A DNA stretch of 31,436 bases from Promethearchaeota archaeon (lineage in GTDB: Archaea; Asgardarchaeota; Lokiarchaeia; Sigyniarchaeales; SOKP01). A program made the translations under genes and the position numbers. Under the pieces are notes generated by a model. It did no database searches. It worked only from the letters and a program-made list of their open reading frames with translations, and was not told the DNA's origin. This document shows positions 8,680-19,910 of the stretch, one piece after another (position 1 is the first letter of the stretch; every line of letters starts with the position of its first letter). The stretch covers positions 1-31,436 of the forward strand of contig JABCSY010000047.1 of NCBI GenBank assembly GCA_018238625.1, written 5' to 3'.

Positions 8680-10212
8680 TTATTTCTCTAATTTTTTTCC
8701 TTTCATAGCTTTTCGAAATTTCTCAAGTTGCTTTCGAGGAGTAACAGTCGGTCTTTCGTATCTTTTCAATTTGGACTTAATTCCAAAAAGGTACTTTGAG
8801 ATATTTTTCAGTTTCTCAAGATCATACCGCATCATCATAGTTATTGTTTCCATTGATGGCGATCCTCCACCATGTAAGCCCGCTACTTGTAATAGGCCCG
8901 CTATCTCGCTCACCGCGAAAGCTTCAATGCCTCTAAAACAGCGTAAAACATTTTCTGGTTTAACTCTTGGATTTCGCTTCATATATTTCATAGCAAGTTC
9001 CCCAACATCTTCAGAGAAGAACGAGCCTTCGTAAGGTAGTGTTGCAATAAGACCGCCAGAAATGTCTGCTAAAACTTTATATTCCTCGTAAATCATTTCT
9101 CCTGCAAGTCTCCTTCCAGCATTGGTTAAAATCTCGTCCGGAACTTGTGTTCCAGAAGGGGCTTTTTCAGAGTGTTTTGCACTAGATTCGCCGGCAGCAA
9201 AAACGAGTTCCGCAGTACCTATAAGGTGAGAAAGTTTGTCTTGAACATGAGACGTTTTTTCAATGCCGTTATATTCTGCAACTAATGCTGCAGCACTCGC
9301 TATAACTTCTGTTATGGCCGGCTTGCAACCAGTATAACTATGGCGGTGATAGTGAGCAAACATAAGTGCTAGAAAGCCAGCGTATGCCGTTTGCCTAGGA
9401 TCTCCATTACCATTTAAAAAAATCCTGTCGTTAGGAACAAAAACATCGTCAAATATAATAAAAGTCTCAGCGTCCCCAAAATTCCCAGCGGGAAATTCCA
9501 TGTGTTCACTTTTTCTAAAGCTAGCAGGTCTCGTTAGTAATTTAACTCCGTCCCAATCTGTAGGCAATGCAAATGCTACGGCGTAATCTTTATCTTTTGG
9601 ACCCATATACCTACAAGGGACTACAATCATCTCATCTGCGTATGGTGTGTTTGTAATGCTTTGTTTACACCCTCTAACAATGATTCCATCTTCTCTCGTT
9701 TCAATAACCCTTAGGTATTGATCTGGGTCTTCTTGTTCGTGTGGTCTCTTCAAACGATCTCCTTTAGCATCAGTTTGAGCCGCACTAGCGACCAAATCGT
9801 TCTCTTGAAAATATTCTAAATACTTCTTAAACCTTTCGTAGTGATCGGTTCCAAGCGCTTGGTCTAACTCGTATGTAATTACAGAAAGAGCGTTTAGAGC
9901 ATCAATACCCATACACCTCTGAATGCACCCCCCTACTCGATGACACAATAATCGCGTCATTAACTGTTTTTTCAAAAGATCCTCTTCGCTCTGATGGATG
10001 TGGCAAAACCGGTTAATCTTTTTTCCAGTTAAATGAGAGGTAACTACACATAAATCTTCATATTCCTCGCTATGAGCGCAGTCATAGGTAACTTTTATGA
10101 TATTTTGACCACCCTGTAATCGAGGGTCATCCCGACCTACTAATTTGTCACCAATGTAAATGTTTGGCTTCATTTTATATAATCGGGCTAAATAATCTTC
10201 AAATGTTTTCAA
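8680..10212 (-). CDS. abfD: 4-hydroxybutyryl-CoA dehydratase/vinylacetyl-CoA isomerase (AbfD/HpaB fold)
   Basis: INRF, CIQRCMG (two Fe-S Cys), AQTDAKGDR, HYHRHSYTGCK (His/Cys ligands), LHGGGSP; TTG start. Confidence 0.85.
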   Translation of the reverse strand: MKTFEDYLARLYKMKPNIYIGDKLVGRDDPRLQGGQNIIKVTYDCAHSEEYEDLCVVTSHLTGKKINRFCHIHQSEEDLLKKQLMTRLLCHRVGGCIQRCMGIDALNALSVITYELDQALGTDHYERFKKYLEYFQENDLVASAAQTDAKGDRLKRPHEQEDPDQYLRVIETREDGIIVRGCKQSITNTPYADEMIVVPCRYMGPKDKDYAVAFALPTDWDGVKLLTRPASFRKSEHMEFPAGNFGDAETFIIFDDVFVPNDRIFLNGNGDPRQTAYAGFLALMFAHYHRHSYTGCKPAITEVIASAAALVAEYNGIEKTSHVQDKLSHLIGTAELVFAAGESSAKHSEKAPSGTQVPDEILTNAGRRLAGEMIYEEYKVLADISGGLIATLPYEGSFFSEDVGELAMKYMKRNPRVKPENVLRCFRGIEAFAVSEIAGLLQVAGLHGGGSPSMETITMMMRYDLEKLKNISKYLFGIKSKLKRYERPTVTPRKQLEKFRKAMKGKKLEK

Positions 10213-12831: not shown

Positions 12832-14091
12832 TTAGGAAGAATCTTCTTTCTTGTCAATGAAATAATCTGAATCAAGATTGGGAAATATCTTTTTTTTTCT
12901 TCCTTCGCTTTTGAAATGAACTAAATTAAGATCTAGTAGCTTTTTAACGTGATATTGGATGGTTTTGTGGTCAACTTTAAAGCGTTTTGTTATAATGCTA
13001 TTCCACAGACCAGGTTCTTTTTCGATCAATTGTAAGACTTCTAGCGTTAATTTGCTCTTACTTAATTGAAGGTCAAGGTTTGAGATGGGATTCTTCTGGT
13101 AATAAGGAAAATACGCTATAAAATTCCCAATGCGCTTTTTCCCAATAACCTTGTAAGTTTCTAATATATCGAGGTGCCACACGAGATTACCAGCCGCAAT
13201 TTCGATTTTTCTTAATAACTCGTTAAAGTGAATACCAGGTTCGTTTAGAATTAAATCAATAATTTTATTCCTATTTTCGTTCTCTAATACGTCTTTTAAG
13301 CTTAACCGATGAGCGCCCTTCTCAATTGGAATCGTTCTAGTTTTTAAGTATTGGAAATAATCTTTTTTGGATATTAAAATAGCAAGCGATGCAATCCCAA
13401 TAGCACCAACTATTAAAATAATTACCCAAAACCAATTATCAAAAACCTCGATAATCTCGAAAAAAGTAATGTAATATTCTGTGTCTGCTTGCAAGTTAAT
13501 AAGAGATCCCTCTAAAGAATATTCAGAATTGGACTCATTTAATTGTTCAATTGTACTGATAACTTCCCACGATTCTTGTGAAGGTTCGTATAAAGCTAAA
13601 GAATAACTATTACTTGGATTAAAACCGTATAGAGAATTTTTAAGACTACTAATAGTCATATTTTCTATCGTTGTGTTAGTATTTATTTGAAAGATGCAAT
13701 CGTACCTGTACTGAAATTGAGCATCTCCTTTTTTTGGTCCTTGAGGTGGTCTAGCCATCCCAAAACTTTGCATAGTTACTTTAGAGGTGATATTTAACGA
13801 AATTGGATTACTATTATTAATAAAAAATAAAGTTTGACGATTTTCAATTCTATTTTCATATTGGATTTCTAAGTCAATAAAAGAATCTGTCGAGATTTCA
13901 AAAATTATATTGTTAGAAAAAATATATTTCACAGATTCATTTGGATAGATTTGATCTTGAGTAGAAAAACCAGGTATATTTTCAGTTCTATGAGATAAAA
14001 CATTAGATATTAAGAAACTAAAATTAATGAAGATTAAAAGTAATATAAGAACGCTGAAAATTGATTTGATCCTTAATTTTAATTTTAACAT
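12832..14091 (-). CDS. Membrane-anchored transcriptional regulator: signal/TM, extracellular beta-rich domain, TM, tandem winged-HTH
   Basis: N-terminal hydrophobic helix; TM WFWVIILIVGAIGIASLAILIS; then ENENRNKIIDLILNEPGIHFNELLR...LVWHLDILE and a second wHTH EPGLWNSII...TIQYHVKKL. Confidence 0.85.
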   Translation of the reverse strand: MLKLKLRIKSIFSVLILLLIFINFSFLISNVLSHRTENIPGFSTQDQIYPNESVKYIFSNNIIFEISTDSFIDLEIQYENRIENRQTLFFINNSNPISLNITSKVTMQSFGMARPPQGPKKGDAQFQYRYDCIFQINTNTTIENMTISSLKNSLYGFNPSNSYSLALYEPSQESWEVISTIEQLNESNSEYSLEGSLINLQADTEYYITFFEIIEVFDNWFWVIILIVGAIGIASLAILISKKDYFQYLKTRTIPIEKGAHRLSLKDVLENENRNKIIDLILNEPGIHFNELLRKIEIAAGNLVWHLDILETYKVIGKKRIGNFIAYFPYYQKNPISNLDLQLSKSKLTLEVLQLIEKEPGLWNSIITKRFKVDHKTIQYHVKKLLDLNLVHFKSEGRKKKIFPNLDSDYFIDKKEDSS

Positions 14092-14177: not shown

Positions 14178-14861
14178 TTATTTTCTCTTTTTCAAATAGA
14201 TTACTGATCCGATTACTATTAAAGCAACAACGCCACCAATGCTCAATCCAATGATTAAAACTGTGTAGTCAGGTATAAGGATAGTCCACGTTGAAAAATG
14301 AGTCACTTCAGCGGTTAGATAACCATCTTTTATGGATGTTGGAACGCTAACCCATTCTTCCGTTGCTTCGTCGAAATAAGCCCATTGACCTACACGATTT
14401 TCGTTAGTTGCCAATATACTTAATTTCGCTTTAGTGAAAGTACCATTGCATTCTAATTTAACAACAAATCCTTCTTGATATTGAACTCGATTACGATTTC
14501 TAATTTGGTAAGTATAGCCCATTAATAACCCTAATTCTTTTTGTTCCTCCGTACAAGTCATATTCATTAAAAGATCGCCGCTACCTTCAATTTCAAGAGC
14601 AAAATCTTTAGAACCGATTTTTGAAGCTTCACAATCAAAGTTTACATCTAAATTAACGTTAGCGTTAAGTCTTAACTGAGTTCCTGCTCTATATCGAAAC
14701 ATGGTCATAGTGTCAGCATGTACATGGTATTCATATGTATCCCCATTAACTTCAACAGTATCGTCTGGATCGCCAACGGCTACGACATTGAAAGATGTAA
14801 CCGTCGAAACAAGGATCATTAGAAAAATTGTGCCTAAGAGAATTTTACTTAATTTTTTCAT
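14178..14861 (-). CDS. Signal-peptide, single-TM surface protein, probably paralogous to the extracellular domain of 12832-14091
   Basis: Signal peptide; beta-rich domain ending WAYFDEATEEWVSVPT...VTHFSTWTIL; C-terminal TM plus KKRK. Confidence 0.8.
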   Translation of the reverse strand: MKKLSKILLGTIFLMILVSTVTSFNVVAVGDPDDTVEVNGDTYEYHVHADTMTMFRYRAGTQLRLNANVNLDVNFDCEASKIGSKDFALEIEGSGDLLMNMTCTEEQKELGLLMGYTYQIRNRNRVQYQEGFVVKLECNGTFTKAKLSILATNENRVGQWAYFDEATEEWVSVPTSIKDGYLTAEVTHFSTWTILIPDYTVLIIGLSIGGVVALIVIGSVIYLKKRK

Positions 14862-15315: not shown

Positions 15316-17571
15316 ATGAGCTTAAAAGAATTTACGAAGGAAATATTCACGAGATATGGATTCTCTGAAGATCAAATTAATGTGTATATCGTCTATCTTA
15401 GAGTCCCAAGAGCAACTTCGTCGGAAGTTTATTTGACCTTAACAGAAAGTCACCCTGAATTGACCTATGAAAGCGTTATTGAGATTACTAATTGGTTGGT
15501 TGAAAAAGGATTTCTCAAAAAGGTAACTGGAATTATTGATAGGTTCATTCCATTAGAACCATACTTCGAACTATACATCGGGGAGTCTAAGATGTTTAGG
15601 GACGAAATTGCTAAAATAAAAGACTCAATTTTGACGGATCAATCAGATCGATTCGAAAGTTTGCAGGCTATTCAAGATAAAAGCATTAATGAAGTAGTAA
15701 CTGCTGTTGACGACCAAATAAAAGCTTTTTTTGAAGATTCAGACACTAAAAACAATAATAAAAGAGATAGAATTAATAGTTCAAGAAACCGGTTTACGGA
15801 TACATCTAAAACATTAGAAGAAAATCTTCATTCTATTATGAATACACTAAATTCAGATATCAAAAATATCTCAGATACTAGAGTAAGAGAAAACGAATCC
15901 ACGGTAAATAAAACAAAGGATAGTTTAACAGGATTAATCTCAGAGTTATTATCTGATTTTTCAAAAAGAGTAGAAGATTTAGAAAGAGAACTGAAAAGGG
16001 ATTTAGATGAACACGTAGATCGCCATAAAACTATCGCAAACGATCTTAAACCTAGAATGGAACAAATTCTTGAAAAATATTTGGAAAGAATGGACAAGAT
16101 AATCGTAGACCTTAAGGGAAGGATTTCAAATCTATTAAAAGAACACTTAAACCACCTTAAGGACACCACCGACACCCTTCAAACTAATCTGAAAGCAACA
16201 GTCGACGAAAGACATAGGACGTTAAATGACCAAACCAATGAATTTAAAGGTATGACGTTAACTTTAATAGATAATCTTTTAGAACACGCTAACAGGTTTA
16301 CAGATTTTTCGGCTGAAATGGGTAAAAAGGGATTTTTTTGGATGGGTAAAAAGAAAAAGTATAAAGCAAGACATGAAACTACGATTCAAAACATTCTCAA
16401 ATATACTGAACCTATGAAAGACGATTTTACAAACACAAGTGAGACATATATAAAAGATACTCGAAGTACTTCGGACAACATGAAAACTGACATCACAGAT
16501 ATTATCACATTAGAAAACGATAATGTCGTAAGCGAAACTAACGATTTAGATCATAAAGCACAAGAGACCATAAATGTACAATTAGAAACGCTTGCGAGCG
16601 ATATGTCGGGAGAGATCGATAGCACTTTACAAAGTGGCGTAAAAGATTGCTCCGATACAACTGTTAAGCTTAAAGATTCGTTAGAGAGCTCGCTTAAAAC
16701 TCACCATAAGCAATACGACGAAGCAATTAATCGACATAAAGAGGAATCATTAAGGCACTATACTGCTTATGACACCGATATTAAAAGAATAAAAGAGGAT
16801 TGGATTAGAGACCTTGATGATAAATTTACTGGCGGAAAAAGAGATAGTTCTGACAAAATTACTGCTGAAATTAACTTGTGGGGCGACGAATCAACAGACT
16901 TAGATAGAAACTTAAGTGAAATGCTTATTGATCATAAGTCTAAATACGAAGAAAATGCGAAAACTTTACAAAATAGTTTATCGAATACTACTCGGGATAC
17001 GACACAAAACGTTAAAGATGCGATCGCCGATTTCACGCTCCACTTTATGAACTCCATTGACGACGCCACAGAGTTAGCCGAAAAGAACGAAAGCAAGCTT
17101 AGTGATATACACAACACTTCAAGTTCAATTCCAGAAATAATGGACATTACGACGTGGCAGATTGTTGGACGAGAGGCTCTAGTTGCAGCTATGAAGGATG
17201 CTATATATAGGGTAAAATCTTCAATTATTATCGTAATGCCCTACGTGCTTCCAGAAATTTTACAAGTTATAAGTGAATACGCTTATCAGAAAAAGGCGGT
17301 AAGATTCATGCTAACCTCGAGATTTGATATGGCAACCTACGGCGATATCATAAAGAAGATGATTGCGCTAGGCAATATCCAATTCCGACAATTAAGTGGA
17401 GCTGGCGAATTCTTTGCGCTAACCAGAGACGCTGAAGAAGTCATCATTGGTCCTGCAACGGAAAAAGAAGGAGAAATGATAAGCGTGGTTTCCAATCAAA
17501 CCGCTTATTCGATTCTCTACTCCCAATTTATAGGTCCAATCTTCCAAGCTAACAGCCGCCCAATAAAGTAA
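15316..17571 (+). CDS. TrmB-like protein: N-terminal wHTH, ~520-aa helical/coiled-coil insert, C-terminal TrmB effector (PLD-like) domain
   Basis: YGFSEDQINVYIVYL...ATSSEV...WLVEKGFL...RFIPLEP (TrmB HTH-like); long Pro-poor charged helical region; TWQIVGREALVAAMKDAIYRVKSSIIIVMP...RDAEEVIIGP C-domain. Confidence 0.78.
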   Translation: MSLKEFTKEIFTRYGFSEDQINVYIVYLRVPRATSSEVYLTLTESHPELTYESVIEITNWLVEKGFLKKVTGIIDRFIPLEPYFELYIGESKMFRDEIAKIKDSILTDQSDRFESLQAIQDKSINEVVTAVDDQIKAFFEDSDTKNNNKRDRINSSRNRFTDTSKTLEENLHSIMNTLNSDIKNISDTRVRENESTVNKTKDSLTGLISELLSDFSKRVEDLERELKRDLDEHVDRHKTIANDLKPRMEQILEKYLERMDKIIVDLKGRISNLLKEHLNHLKDTTDTLQTNLKATVDERHRTLNDQTNEFKGMTLTLIDNLLEHANRFTDFSAEMGKKGFFWMGKKKKYKARHETTIQNILKYTEPMKDDFTNTSETYIKDTRSTSDNMKTDITDIITLENDNVVSETNDLDHKAQETINVQLETLASDMSGEIDSTLQSGVKDCSDTTVKLKDSLESSLKTHHKQYDEAINRHKEESLRHYTAYDTDIKRIKEDWIRDLDDKFTGGKRDSSDKITAEINLWGDESTDLDRNLSEMLIDHKSKYEENAKTLQNSLSNTTRDTTQNVKDAIADFTLHFMNSIDDATELAEKNESKLSDIHNTSSSIPEIMDITTWQIVGREALVAAMKDAIYRVKSSIIIVMPYVLPEILQVISEYAYQKKAVRFMLTSRFDMATYGDIIKKMIALGNIQFRQLSGAGEFFALTRDAEEVIIGPATEKEGEMISVVSNQTAYSILYSQFIGPIFQANSRPIK

Positions 17572-18393: not shown

Positions 18394-19665
18394 TTATTTA
18401 GATTTTAAGCTGTTAATATCGTCGTCGTCTACATGTATACGCTTTAAGTCTATATCAGAGTATCCTGGCAAGATGTTAATGAATTGGCGAATGGAGTTCT
18501 TGATATCCTTGCTGGAAGTAATATACCTGCCAACTATTAAGATATCTGCTTTCATTTTTAGAGCGTAAACCGCTGTAGATGGTTCAATTCCTCCAGCAAC
18601 TGCTACTAACACGCGATCTTTTCCAGATGCTAATTTTTTATCAGCATATAATTCTTTTATTTTAGGAACGAATTGCCATTTTAGTTTTTGGGCGTCATCT
18701 GATCCTTCTACGGCGTTTTCTACGTCTATAGCTCTATGAAGAATTACAACATCTGGTATTTGTTTCAATTGTTTTAATTTCTCGATGGGATCAACCACTT
18801 CCATTGTGTCAACGAACCCATAAATTCCAAGCCGTCTTGCTTCTAATAAAAACTTATCAATTGATTTGGGAGACGCCAAACCACTTGCTACTACGGCGTC
18901 GGCAGTAGCATCAAAAGCAAAATCCACCTCTAATTTGCCGACATCAAGCGTTTTTAAATCAGCGACGATGAATTTCTCTGGAGCTACTTCCCGTATCTTT
19001 TCAATTGCCTCCATCCCATATTTCTTAAGAAACGGAGTTCCAATTTCTAAAATGATTCTATCGCTTTTTGGGAGTTGCTTAACAACTTTCAATTGGTGTT
19101 CCAAACTTGGCGCATCTAAAGCAACTTGTAAATAGGGCGGTCTCCAAAGTCTTGGAACTTTTATTCCAGCAACAGGATGTTTTGCGCGATCCTTATCGTA
19201 GAAAATTTTCTCAATTGGAGGATAATTTTTTAAAGCCCTTTGGATAGCTAACTTTGTAGCACCATAATTATACTGATATATTTTCCTGTAATCTTTTGCT
19301 TCGGGATGAATAAAAACGCTCACAATTAAAAGCCATTCATCAATTTTATTCATCGGAATGAGGTTTTCTTCGACAGCATCCGCTATTGCTTTAGCAACAG
19401 CGGCTTGAGCTGGCCCAAAAATTTTATTAGCATCTTCCATTTTTGAGACAGTTACTTTTGGAATTACCAAACTAACAGGTTTAGTTATTAAATTCGGCCT
19501 AATACACGCTAGAAGCCCTCCATGGCCTATTGAAGGGTTACTAAGGGCATTAGCAAAAGAGATTCCCACGGGGCCGTCTTTGGAGCCGATAATTAGATCA
19601 ATATGAGCTAACGAGTTCCCAGAACCTAGAAGTGCTTCTCCTATAAAATAGTCAGTTTTAGCCAT
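18394..19665 (-). CDS. fae-hps: Bifunctional formaldehyde-activating enzyme/3-hexulose-6-phosphate synthase
   Basis: Fae: IGEALLGSG...AHIDLIIG.KDGPVG, FGPAQAAVAKA, VFIHPEAKD..KIYQYNYGATKLA. Hps: PPYLQVALD, LEIGTP, VADLKTLDVG, LHRAID, VAVAGGI, ILIVGRYIT. Likely ATG at 19665. Confidence 0.93.
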   Translation of the reverse strand: MAKTDYFIGEALLGSGNSLAHIDLIIGSKDGPVGISFANALSNPSIGHGGLLACIRPNLITKPVSLVIPKVTVSKMEDANKIFGPAQAAVAKAIADAVEENLIPMNKIDEWLLIVSVFIHPEAKDYRKIYQYNYGATKLAIQRALKNYPPIEKIFYDKDRAKHPVAGIKVPRLWRPPYLQVALDAPSLEHQLKVVKQLPKSDRIILEIGTPFLKKYGMEAIEKIREVAPEKFIVADLKTLDVGKLEVDFAFDATADAVVASGLASPKSIDKFLLEARRLGIYGFVDTMEVVDPIEKLKQLKQIPDVVILHRAIDVENAVEGSDDAQKLKWQFVPKIKELYADKKLASGKDRVLVAVAGGIEPSTAVYALKMKADILIVGRYITSSKDIKNSIRQFINILPGYSDIDLKRIHVDDDDINSLKSK

Positions 19666-19910
19666 ATAAAACAACGCAATTATTATCTATTTAAAATTTT
19701 ATATTTTTTAGATATTATAAAATAATACTTTACTACATTAAATTAGAGTTAATTCTCCATTATTAAAATTATCTTTAATGAAATTGAAAAAAATGAGAGA
19801 GTAGATAATTATAAATATTAATATTGTTATGTATTTTAAAAGAATCGGTTTTGTAATTCAAAATAGGTTTAGTGACTATATAATTTATTACAAGAACTTA
19901 TTTAGTTTTT

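Follow-up and report, generated by a model that had tools for sequence, protein, structure and literature searches.

Two proteins of the TrmB family with solved structures, TrmBL2 (5bpd, 5bpi and 5bqt) and TrmB (2f5t and 3qph), share one order of parts: a TrmB-type winged helix, a helix and a phospholipase D (PLD)-like domain. According to PMC4877046, which also sets out the domain order of the family, its members form dimers or tetramers, and TrmBL2, a chromatin protein of the Thermococcales, has no sugar-binding subdomain and shows high conservation within its clade. We analysed a stretch of 31,436 nt from a Promethearchaeota archaeon (GenBank assembly GCA_018238625.1, contig JABCSY010000047.1, positions 1 to 31,436; hereafter the window), in which one gene, called here the rod gene, encodes a protein with the same order of parts but of 751 residues, against ~260 in the solved TrmBL2 chains. 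Where TrmB and TrmBL2 have a single dimerisation helix, the rod protein has two helices of ~255 residues, which very probably form a ~38 nm hairpin with a specialised apex, and its winged helix is acidic. The main parts of the gene are as follows.

15316..17571, + strand: whole rod gene, with an ATG start and 751 codons plus stop; monocistronic
15316..15561, + strand: TrmB-type winged helix-turn-helix (HTH), residues 1-82, from Pfam matches in relatives, the AlphaFold2 model and VIA-align
15562..16323, + strand: N arm, residues 83-336, one continuous hendecad helix of 254 residues, ~38 nm
16354..17127, + strand: C arm, residues 347-604, a helix of 258 residues antiparallel to the N arm
17149..17568, + strand: TrmB/TrmBL2-type PLD-like domain, residues 612-751, from VIA-align; K634, N687, D705 and E708 are invariant

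Long hairpins with matched arms are found in other proteins. At the apex of the length-matched hairpins of chemoreceptors, SMC and Rad50 there is a protein interface. In chemoreceptors, indels of the hairpin reportedly come in matched pairs on both arms and in units of the helical repeat, a rule that Alexander and Zhulin are said to have described in 2007. The rod protein resembles the cytoplasmic hairpin of the methyl-accepting chemoreceptors in its long antiparallel hairpin, its symmetric indels and its specialised tip; it differs in having a hendecad (3.66) instead of a heptad (3.5) repeat, a TrmB head and no transmembrane segment, and the MCP signalling domain was not among the families found in our Pfam scan of it. 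With SMC, MukB and Rad50 it shares end domains that meet at one end of an antiparallel, length-matched coiled coil and a special fold-back element. Unlike them it is a ~38 nm hendecad rod without ABC ATPase head, hinge domain or zinc hook: scans with Pfam and NCBIfam found no ABC ATPase head or hinge families, and the apex holds no CxxC.

The arms pair antiparallel in a fixed register

Relatives of the rod protein were anchored at three places by hidden Markov models (N domain, midpoint block and C domain). All three anchors were present in 193 proteins, which were counted; a further 136 had only some of them and were excluded from the count. The 193 relatives fall into 12 arm-length classes, with N arms of 218, 240, 247, 258, 262, 269, 280, 291, 302, 324 and 368 residues, the 258-residue arm being paired with two different C-arm lengths. 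Most of the differences between N arms are multiples of 11. Whatever the class, the C arm is 29-30 residues longer than the N arm, and the correlation of the two lengths over the classes is r = 0.99998. The same held at the related loci drawn from genome collections (see below), where the difference was 29-31 residues in 73 of 80 and one extra class (229/260) was found.

In an alignment of 56 diverse sequences, the main length changes map to one site on each arm:

15811..15828, + strand: N-arm insertion site, residues 166-171, with inserts of 40, 44, 62, 106 or 150 residues
16843..16851, + strand: matching C-arm insertion site, residues 510-512, the mirror of residues 166-171 about residue 340.5

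Insert sizes in this alignment are identical on the two arms (40/40, 44/44, 62/62, 106/106 and 150/150). There are also paired deletions of 11 residues at 180 and 486, and in one lineage inserts of 22/26 combined with deletions of 11/15 give a net gain of 11 residues per arm under the gap placement of this alignment. The paired indels have their midpoints at ~338.5-340.5, that is, at an FFW triplet (residues 340-342), and the alignment shows a length polymorphism of four residues exactly at residue 339.

Conservation is mirrored as well. When the conservation profile of the N arm was compared with that of the reversed C arm, the best of 373 centres fell at 341-343, with r of 0.66-0.78 depending on the smoothing; the standard deviation across centres being 0.32-0.39, this is supportive and not decisive. 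A parallel pairing of the arms was also tried and rejected: its best offset gave r of 0.50-0.68, below the antiparallel value at each smoothing width, by a modest separation. A natural relative of 323 residues (P0133) gives an independent view of the same symmetry. It aligns only with residues 1-123 (51% identity) and 536-751 (45%) of the rod protein, so that the rod is missing from it between two points that roughly mirror each other (123 + 558 = 681). It keeps only the base of both arms, with a short turn between them, and has the size of an ordinary TrmBL2; it could serve as a natural 'head-only' construct.

The arm lengths, the indels, the conservation and P0133, all of them independent of AlphaFold, establish that the arms pair antiparallel in a register of i + j ~681. 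Since neither arm changes length without a matching step in the other, mostly of whole hendecads, the rod behaves as a length-constrained spacer.

A hendecad rod that very probably folds back on itself

The hydrophobicity of the rod shows a single dominant period of 3.66-3.68 residues (11/3), with a power of 340 against 78 for the 95th percentile of shuffled sequences, and hydrophobic positions line up in straight columns when the rod is set out in rows of eleven. Its building unit is the hendecad. The periodicity of 11/3 is the one used by lipid-surface helices, and the protein has a weak match to the Pfam family PF01442 (E = 4.8e-7; 1e-13 to 1e-14 in some relatives) and to ApoA-I chains (E ~2e-4). 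Apolipoprotein-like behaviour could then be envisaged, in which the hendecad helices would open flat on a membrane or a lipid particle and the hairpin would be their lipid-free storage form. We consider this extremely improbable: the PF01442 match reaches 30.1 bits (41-52 bits in the relatives) for a gathering score of 90, just 24-28% of the rod residues are strongly hydrophobic, the rod carries a net charge of -35 over both arms, and strict arm matching is needed for pairing, not for lying flat. Homology with apolipoproteins was rejected, the sub-threshold PF01442 match being explained by the shared 11-residue periodicity.

A first AlphaFold2 model, built from 25 close sequences, was too weak for the rod (mean predicted local distance difference test score, pLDDT, 57.6; predicted template modelling score, pTM, 0.27) and was superseded by a second one, built from the 56 diverse sequences (mean pLDDT 77.8). 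In the second model the single amphipathic linker helix of the TrmB family is missing and is replaced by two uninterrupted helices, 83-336 and 347-604, which bears out the ~520-residue helical stretch reported by the first-pass annotation; the loop between them, 337-346, is the sole internal stretch with a pLDDT below 50. At 0.15 nm per residue, arms of 254-258 residues correspond to ~38 nm. When the pLDDT values are averaged in blocks of 10 residues they mirror about 340/341, with 26 of 26 pairs within 6 units, as expected if residues i and 681-i share their environment. A structural search with this model against 48,161 solved chains (VIA-align) gave its best geometric matches with the hyperactive type I antifreeze protein 'Maxi', a helical hairpin (4ke2; model residues 238-441, Z 9.8, root mean square deviation (rmsd) 4.8 A, 196 aligned), and with the enterococcal PrgA (6z9l; residues 84-606, Z 10.6, 508 aligned); both are fold analogues only, with 6% identity. 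The cohesin arm 7ogt_B was also matched (Z 13.6, 473 aligned, with a meaningless rmsd). Since long helices often give Z values of this size, as VIA-align itself cautions, these matches were used only to read the geometry of the model.

Antiparallel pairing can be achieved by one chain or by two. Two chains with continuous helices of ~520 residues could pair antiparallel in a rod of ~77 nm. Each end would then carry an N domain from one chain and a C domain from the other, and the midpoint motifs of both chains would be neighbours in the middle; TrmB-family proteins do form dimers or tetramers (PMC4877046). Two points count against a hairpin made by a single chain: matched arms, mirrored indels and mirrored conservation are expected equally from two unfolded chains paired in this way, and the pTM of the second model is just 0.38. 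For the fold-back speak the glycines that bracket the midpoint motif in the loop, the four-residue length polymorphism located exactly there (at 339), and the AlphaFold2 model, which breaks the helix at 337-346, folds back and aligns with solved hairpins; P0133, which retains just the arm bases with a short turn, is also at odds with two continuous helices. We judge the two-chain rod quite improbable and the intramolecular hairpin, with FFW at its apex, very probable.

The antiparallel rod of the first-pass annotation, there of ~260 residues per arm, is thereby upheld at ~255 residues per arm and ~38 nm by the matched arms, the mirrored indels and conservation, AlphaFold2 and the solved hairpins; the AlphaFold monomer that it had proposed as a check does place FFW in the apical loop, 337-346. 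We show here that both globular domains stand together at one end of the rod.

The head is of the TrmBL2 type

The open reading frame at 15316..17571 (+), the sole long one at this position, had been read by the first-pass annotation as a TrmB-type winged HTH followed by a PLD-like C domain, and the structural and profile searches agree. Residues 4-81 of the second model match winged-helix proteins with Z of 10-12 (VIA-align), the Pfam family TrmB (PF01978) exceeds its gathering score in six of the 10 more distant relatives scanned, and a profile of 20 N domains matches residues 12-84 of Pyrococcus furiosus TrmB (3qph) with E = 0.045. At the other end, residues 612-751 superimpose on the N-terminal subdomain of the effector domain of TrmB 2f5t_X (Z 18.2, rmsd 1.8 A, 131 aligned), the aligned range in the TrmB chain ending at residue 242, and on TrmB 3qph_A (Z 17.4); a profile of the C domain matches 3qph with E = 0.012. 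A longer piece, residues 552-750, fits residues 65-264 of TrmBL2 5bpd_A (Z 15.3), in which the last ~50 residues of the C arm match the TrmBL2 dimerisation helix. TrmBL2 was also ranked first (E = 2.5e-5) by Foldseek with the first AlphaFold2 model. Among proteins of the PLD fold, NucT (Z 15.2), Nuc (Z 14.1) and Zucchini (Z 12.5) were matched. Residues 605-751 hold no histidine, and the catalytic HKD motif of PLD, HxK(x)4D, is therefore absent from the C domain.

The chain ends at residue 751 with the PLD-like domain, without the sugar-binding subdomain of the TrmB/TrmBL1 type. Because this subdomain is absent, as it is from TrmBL2 (PMC4877046), the head was assigned to the TrmBL2 type. Within the TrmB lineage, the rod protein is divergent and stands nearest to TrmBL2.

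The C domain has two paralogues in the same genome. One is carried by a protein of 753 residues (L085 2503-4764 (-), G000:C9) with a Cys-pair N terminus and TrmB-like and helical regions; there, the PLD-like domain lies mid-chain and the tail is rich in proline and lysine. The other belongs to a frame of 321 residues (G000:C82:18278-18721 (-)), an ordinary TrmB-like size. Elsewhere, the PLD-like domain is found alone (about 140-230 residues), often with a long lysine-rich C-terminal tail (P0143-P0195), or fused to TPR repeats and zinc-ribbon-like ends (P0144, P0147 and P0160). In these archaea, then, the 'TrmB C domain' is a module that moves between proteins.

The apex motif and what it may bind

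The apex of the hairpin is occupied by the following motif, at the place and with the letters given by the first-pass annotation:

16318..16365, + strand: midpoint motif, residues 335-350, a glycine-bracketed FFWM followed by a lysine cluster, reading MGKKGFFWMGKKKKYK

In 25 close homologues (72-95% identity, aligned without indels), M335, K337, K338, F340, W342, G344, K345, K346, K348, Y349 and K350 are invariant, and G339, F341 and K347 nearly so. The alignment of 56 sequences reveals two forms of the apex. The short one consists of a glycine, two to four hydrophobic or aromatic residues (FFWM, FFWL, FFWA, FLWM, FFF or LFFT), usually a second glycine, and K-K-K-K-Y-K. The long one reads R-G-[SA]-A-[FW]-K-x-L-[FL]-x-G-[KQH]-H-K-x-[YFW], and the i, i+3, i+4 spacing of its hydrophobic residues suggests a short amphipathic helix. 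We take its R-G-S-A-F-K-A-L-F-x-G-K-H-K version to resemble the amphipathic membrane-targeting sequences of the MinD and FtsA type.

The rod protein has a net charge of -30, with one cysteine and five tryptophans. The charge is -3 for the N domain, -11 for the N arm and -24 for the C arm, and the apex (residues 335-353, +8) is the only strongly basic patch. On the Wimley-White interfacial scale, FFWM is the most membrane-favourable window of 4-7 residues in the whole protein (-4.3 kcal/mol, the next one being at -2.7) and the sole such window with a flanking charge of +5 to +6. The best interfacial window of the rod lies at the apex in 174 of the 193 relatives. The protein has no transmembrane segment, its top 19-residue Kyte-Doolittle window reaching only 1.6, within the C domain. 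These physico-chemical properties make membrane binding by the tip plausible.

A mechanism can be proposed along these lines. The linker helix of TrmB would have been extended into a ~38 nm antiparallel two-helix hendecad hairpin. The surface on which its aromatic and basic apex would dock is anionic, and most probably that of the membrane on its cytoplasmic side; there the lysines would bind lipid head groups and the aromatic residues would insert at the interface. The acidic rod (-35) would be repelled by that surface and stand off, and the TrmBL2-like head would be held ~38 nm away, where it could bind its own ligand: DNA by homology, or else a protein or a small molecule. The rod protein would then serve to tether the membrane to the nucleoid, or to another partner bound by the head, or to space the two, over a fixed length; we hold this reading tentatively, its chances being a little below even. 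A role in nucleoid positioning or segregation, put forward in the first-pass annotation, is speculation. The proposed combination of a nucleic-acid-binding module with a short basic-hydrophobic membrane element would liken the protein to the bacterial DNA-to-membrane tethers Noc, RacA and RicO (10.64898/2026.03.06.710092) and, for the membrane element, to the targeting sequences of MinD and FtsA. It has no sequence relationship to them, its element is internal, at the apex of a rod, instead of terminal, it has a rigid 38 nm spacer, and both of its bindings are putative.

Several observations weigh against the tether. At the head end, the rod protein itself stays below the Pfam threshold for PF01978 (E = 0.13, 12.5 bits for a cut-off of 25.6), its winged-helix domain has a negative net charge throughout the family (20 of 20 members, -2 to -11, median -3.5), and the predicted recognition helix (residues 49-63), the start of which varies, has a net charge of -3 (-5 to 0 in the family). 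That the head binds DNA, as homology would suggest, is doubtful in view of this acidic winged helix and recognition helix. The N domain has conserved basic residues, K64, K68, K69 and R76 in the wing as well as R29, R32, K4 and K8; given these basic residues, binding of DNA by the head is possible, yet it is not to be assumed from family membership. The charge counts likewise call for caution over a chromatin role of the TrmBL2 type, with its non-specific DNA binding, tetramers and high abundance. At the tip, the motif is unrecognisable in six relatives of 17-21% identity in the alignment of 56 sequences; the function of the tip may therefore be specific to a subfamily. Conservation at the apex (2.66 bits per column) does not exceed that of the remaining rod (2.74), and 19 of the 193 relatives have their best interfacial rod window elsewhere; long and short forms are both among the 15 of these exceptions that were inspected. 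Finally, no conserved neighbour hinting at a membrane or chromosome process was found among the related loci. The alignment of homologues, which the first-pass annotation had named as a check, gave a divided answer: the symmetry of the arms was borne out, and the type of apex motif is kept in relatives down to ~36% identity and not recognisable at 17-21%.

The apex could instead be a site for protein binding or self-association, with rods joined tip-to-tip to bridge head-bound partners ~75 nm apart, or with the tip plugged into a partner protein. Exposed aromatic residues bracketed by glycines suit a protein pocket as well as a membrane, and the hairpin tips of chemoreceptors and SMC/Rad50, mentioned above, do serve as protein interfaces. 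Contacts along the rod are hinted at by seven conserved rod histidines and by the high conservation of the rod surface, where 72 of 356 columns keep one residue in >=80% of divergent relatives (identity in relatives is 36-50% for the rod and 39-63% for the globular domains). A lysine cluster like the one alongside (+8) would more typically bind an anionic surface, the apex is without a metal-binding hook motif, and no conserved neighbouring gene that would supply the partner was found at the related loci. A complex prediction with two copies of residues 200-482 gave a median score of 0.26 (mark 0.42), which weighs neither way on self-association of the rod. All in all, a protein-binding apex appears rather unlikely. 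The structural claim is strong; the functional one, a lipid-binding tip and a DNA-binding head, is tentative.

Conserved histidines and a cysteine on the rod

Besides the apex, the conserved positions of the rod include the sole cysteine and, among the histidines, a pair that the register of the hairpin places next to it:

16012..16026, + strand: conserved H-x-x-x-H (H233 and H237), residues 233-237, on the N arm, facing C445 and T448 by hairpin register
16648..16650, + strand: C445, the sole cysteine of the protein, present in >=90% of the 56 aligned relatives

The register sums are 681 for H233 and T448 and 682 for H237 and C445. A putative inter-arm metal or redox clamp formed by H233, H237 and C445 is possible.

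These residues, or a membrane-bound tip, could also be the switch of a transcription regulator gated by its rod, which would sequester or release the TrmB-type head. The members of the TrmB family are mainly regulators (PMC4877046 gives the domain order), some Joint Genome Institute (JGI) records label relatives of the rod protein 'sugar-specific transcriptional regulator TrmB', and the conserved HxxxH does lie opposite the sole cysteine under the hairpin register. The lack of the sugar-binding subdomain, a recognition helix that is acidic and variable, and the absence, as far as the related loci show, of a conserved target operon adjoining the gene all speak against such a regulator; simple gating also leaves unexplained an indel-free, ruler-like rod in 118 of the 120 close homologues listed. 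We regard a rod-gated regulator as distinctly unlikely.

The family is confined to Asgard archaea

A word-based search returned 329 relatives. Among the 120 listed, 118 are exactly 751 residues long, and all 41 that bear an organism name are labelled as Asgard lineages. An exhaustive search of representative sequences gave 181 clusters at E <= 1e-3, with full-length forms of 755-1788 residues as well as stand-alone and TPR-fused C domains. From collections with one genome per species, 109 loci were confirmed and 80 kept; none of the 80 has a non-archaeal label, most being labelled as Promethearchaeota or another Asgard lineage and 12 as 'uncultured archaeon'. At E <= 1e-10, a match was found in 318 of the 332 genomes of the phylum that are >=80% complete, and in 117 of 117 in the window's own family; many of the matches outside its order are weak (1e-11 to 1e-60) and may be at domain level only. 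The window's genome holds one full-length copy. We conclude that the family is confined to Asgard archaea and near-universal there. The best explanation is that the rod protein is a cytoplasmic, Asgard-specific member of the TrmB/TrmBL2 lineage.

Some distant full-length relatives (P0164, P0178, P0192 and P0225; 1100-1788 residues) have the same head domains and no recognisable basic-aromatic midpoint; the rod of P0164 contains an internal direct duplication of ~120 residues.

A literature search found no published description of this architecture; most subscription journals lay outside its coverage, so that absence from print is unproven. A 'TrmB family transcriptional regulator', DSAG12_03376, stands 10th by identification score in the proteome of P. 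syntrophicum, with a low length-normalised abundance (normalised spectral abundance factor, NSAF, 0.15), a pattern that would fit a long protein (PMC11284389); it may be the orthologue of the rod protein, and its annotation name appears in neither of the homologue lists of the rod protein. Six metatranscriptome runs contain 8-24% of the sampled words, small shares that are no evidence of expression.

The locus and its neighbours

The rod gene stands alone, between a divergent gene upstream and a convergent one downstream. On the upstream, divergent side are genes for a 227-residue membrane protein and a 419-residue membrane-anchored HTH protein; on the downstream, convergent side are an open reading frame of 130 residues and a Fae-Hps fusion. 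Along the window, the GC content in 1-kb steps is 0.47 at 1-1000 and 0.42 at 9001-10000, and 0.28-0.40 elsewhere (mostly 0.28-0.38).

The 419-residue protein (window 12832-14091, - strand) has an N-terminal membrane segment, an outside-looking domain of ~200 residues, a second hydrophobic segment and two cytoplasmic HTH domains (HVO_0163-type PF24266, E = 5.7e-15, and HTH_24, E = 4.3e-8). It resembles a membrane-anchored DNA-binding protein, and 43 of the 80 related loci have a homologue of it upstream of the rod gene. The 227-residue protein (14178-14861, - strand), which matches no Pfam family, begins with what resembles a signal peptide and has, at its C terminus, a hydrophobic anchor and then KKRK. 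It is present at 46 of the 80 loci; at many of these its gene lies 215-555 bp upstream of the rod gene and is transcribed away from it. The Fae-Hps fusion (18394-19674, - strand) joins a formaldehyde-activating enzyme to a domain of the orotidine monophosphate (OMP) decarboxylase/HUMPS family (PF00215); it is near and convergent with the rod gene at many related loci, with 70-83% identity among them.

The neighbours common to the window and the related loci are the 227- and 419-residue membrane proteins, a nitroreductase, Fae-Hps, a 273-residue protein and S6e. The pair of membrane proteins is missing at every locus of <=49% identity, including all seven at 46-49%, and at three loci of 36% identity (L060, L063 and L067) all neighbours shared with the window are missing, Fae-Hps and S6e included. 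When 18 divergent loci were clustered, only Fae-Hps, the 273-residue protein and S6e recurred. The idea that one of the shared neighbours is an operon partner was rejected: they fade with divergence, which we read as inherited synteny and not as functional linkage. Within the same loci, the median identity is 69% for the rod protein, 77% for Fae-Hps and 78% for S6e.

Significance for Asgard cell biology

Asgard cell biology has a central place in ideas on the origin of eukaryotes, and how the nucleoid of these archaea is placed relative to the membrane is almost wholly obscure. The rod protein is near-universal in these archaea, single-copy in the window's genome, conserved about as well as its housekeeping neighbours and built on a rod that changes in matched steps, which makes it a well-defined candidate structural spacer or tether. 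A precise register of residue pairing (i + j ~681) also follows from the matched-arm rule. If the head does not bind DNA, the protein would be a TrmB scaffold recruited for a non-transcriptional, structural role. In its most far-reaching form, the tether would be an Asgard-specific, near-universal 'molecular ruler', its tip on the inner face of the membrane, holding chromatin or another head-bound structure ~38 nm off at a distance tuned in hendecads by each lineage, and the His-His-Cys site might act within it as an inter-arm metal or redox clamp. This we consider unlikely; if true, the 'molecular ruler' would be a prokaryotic functional analogue of a lamina-type tether of chromatin to membrane, in the closest archaeal relatives of eukaryotes.

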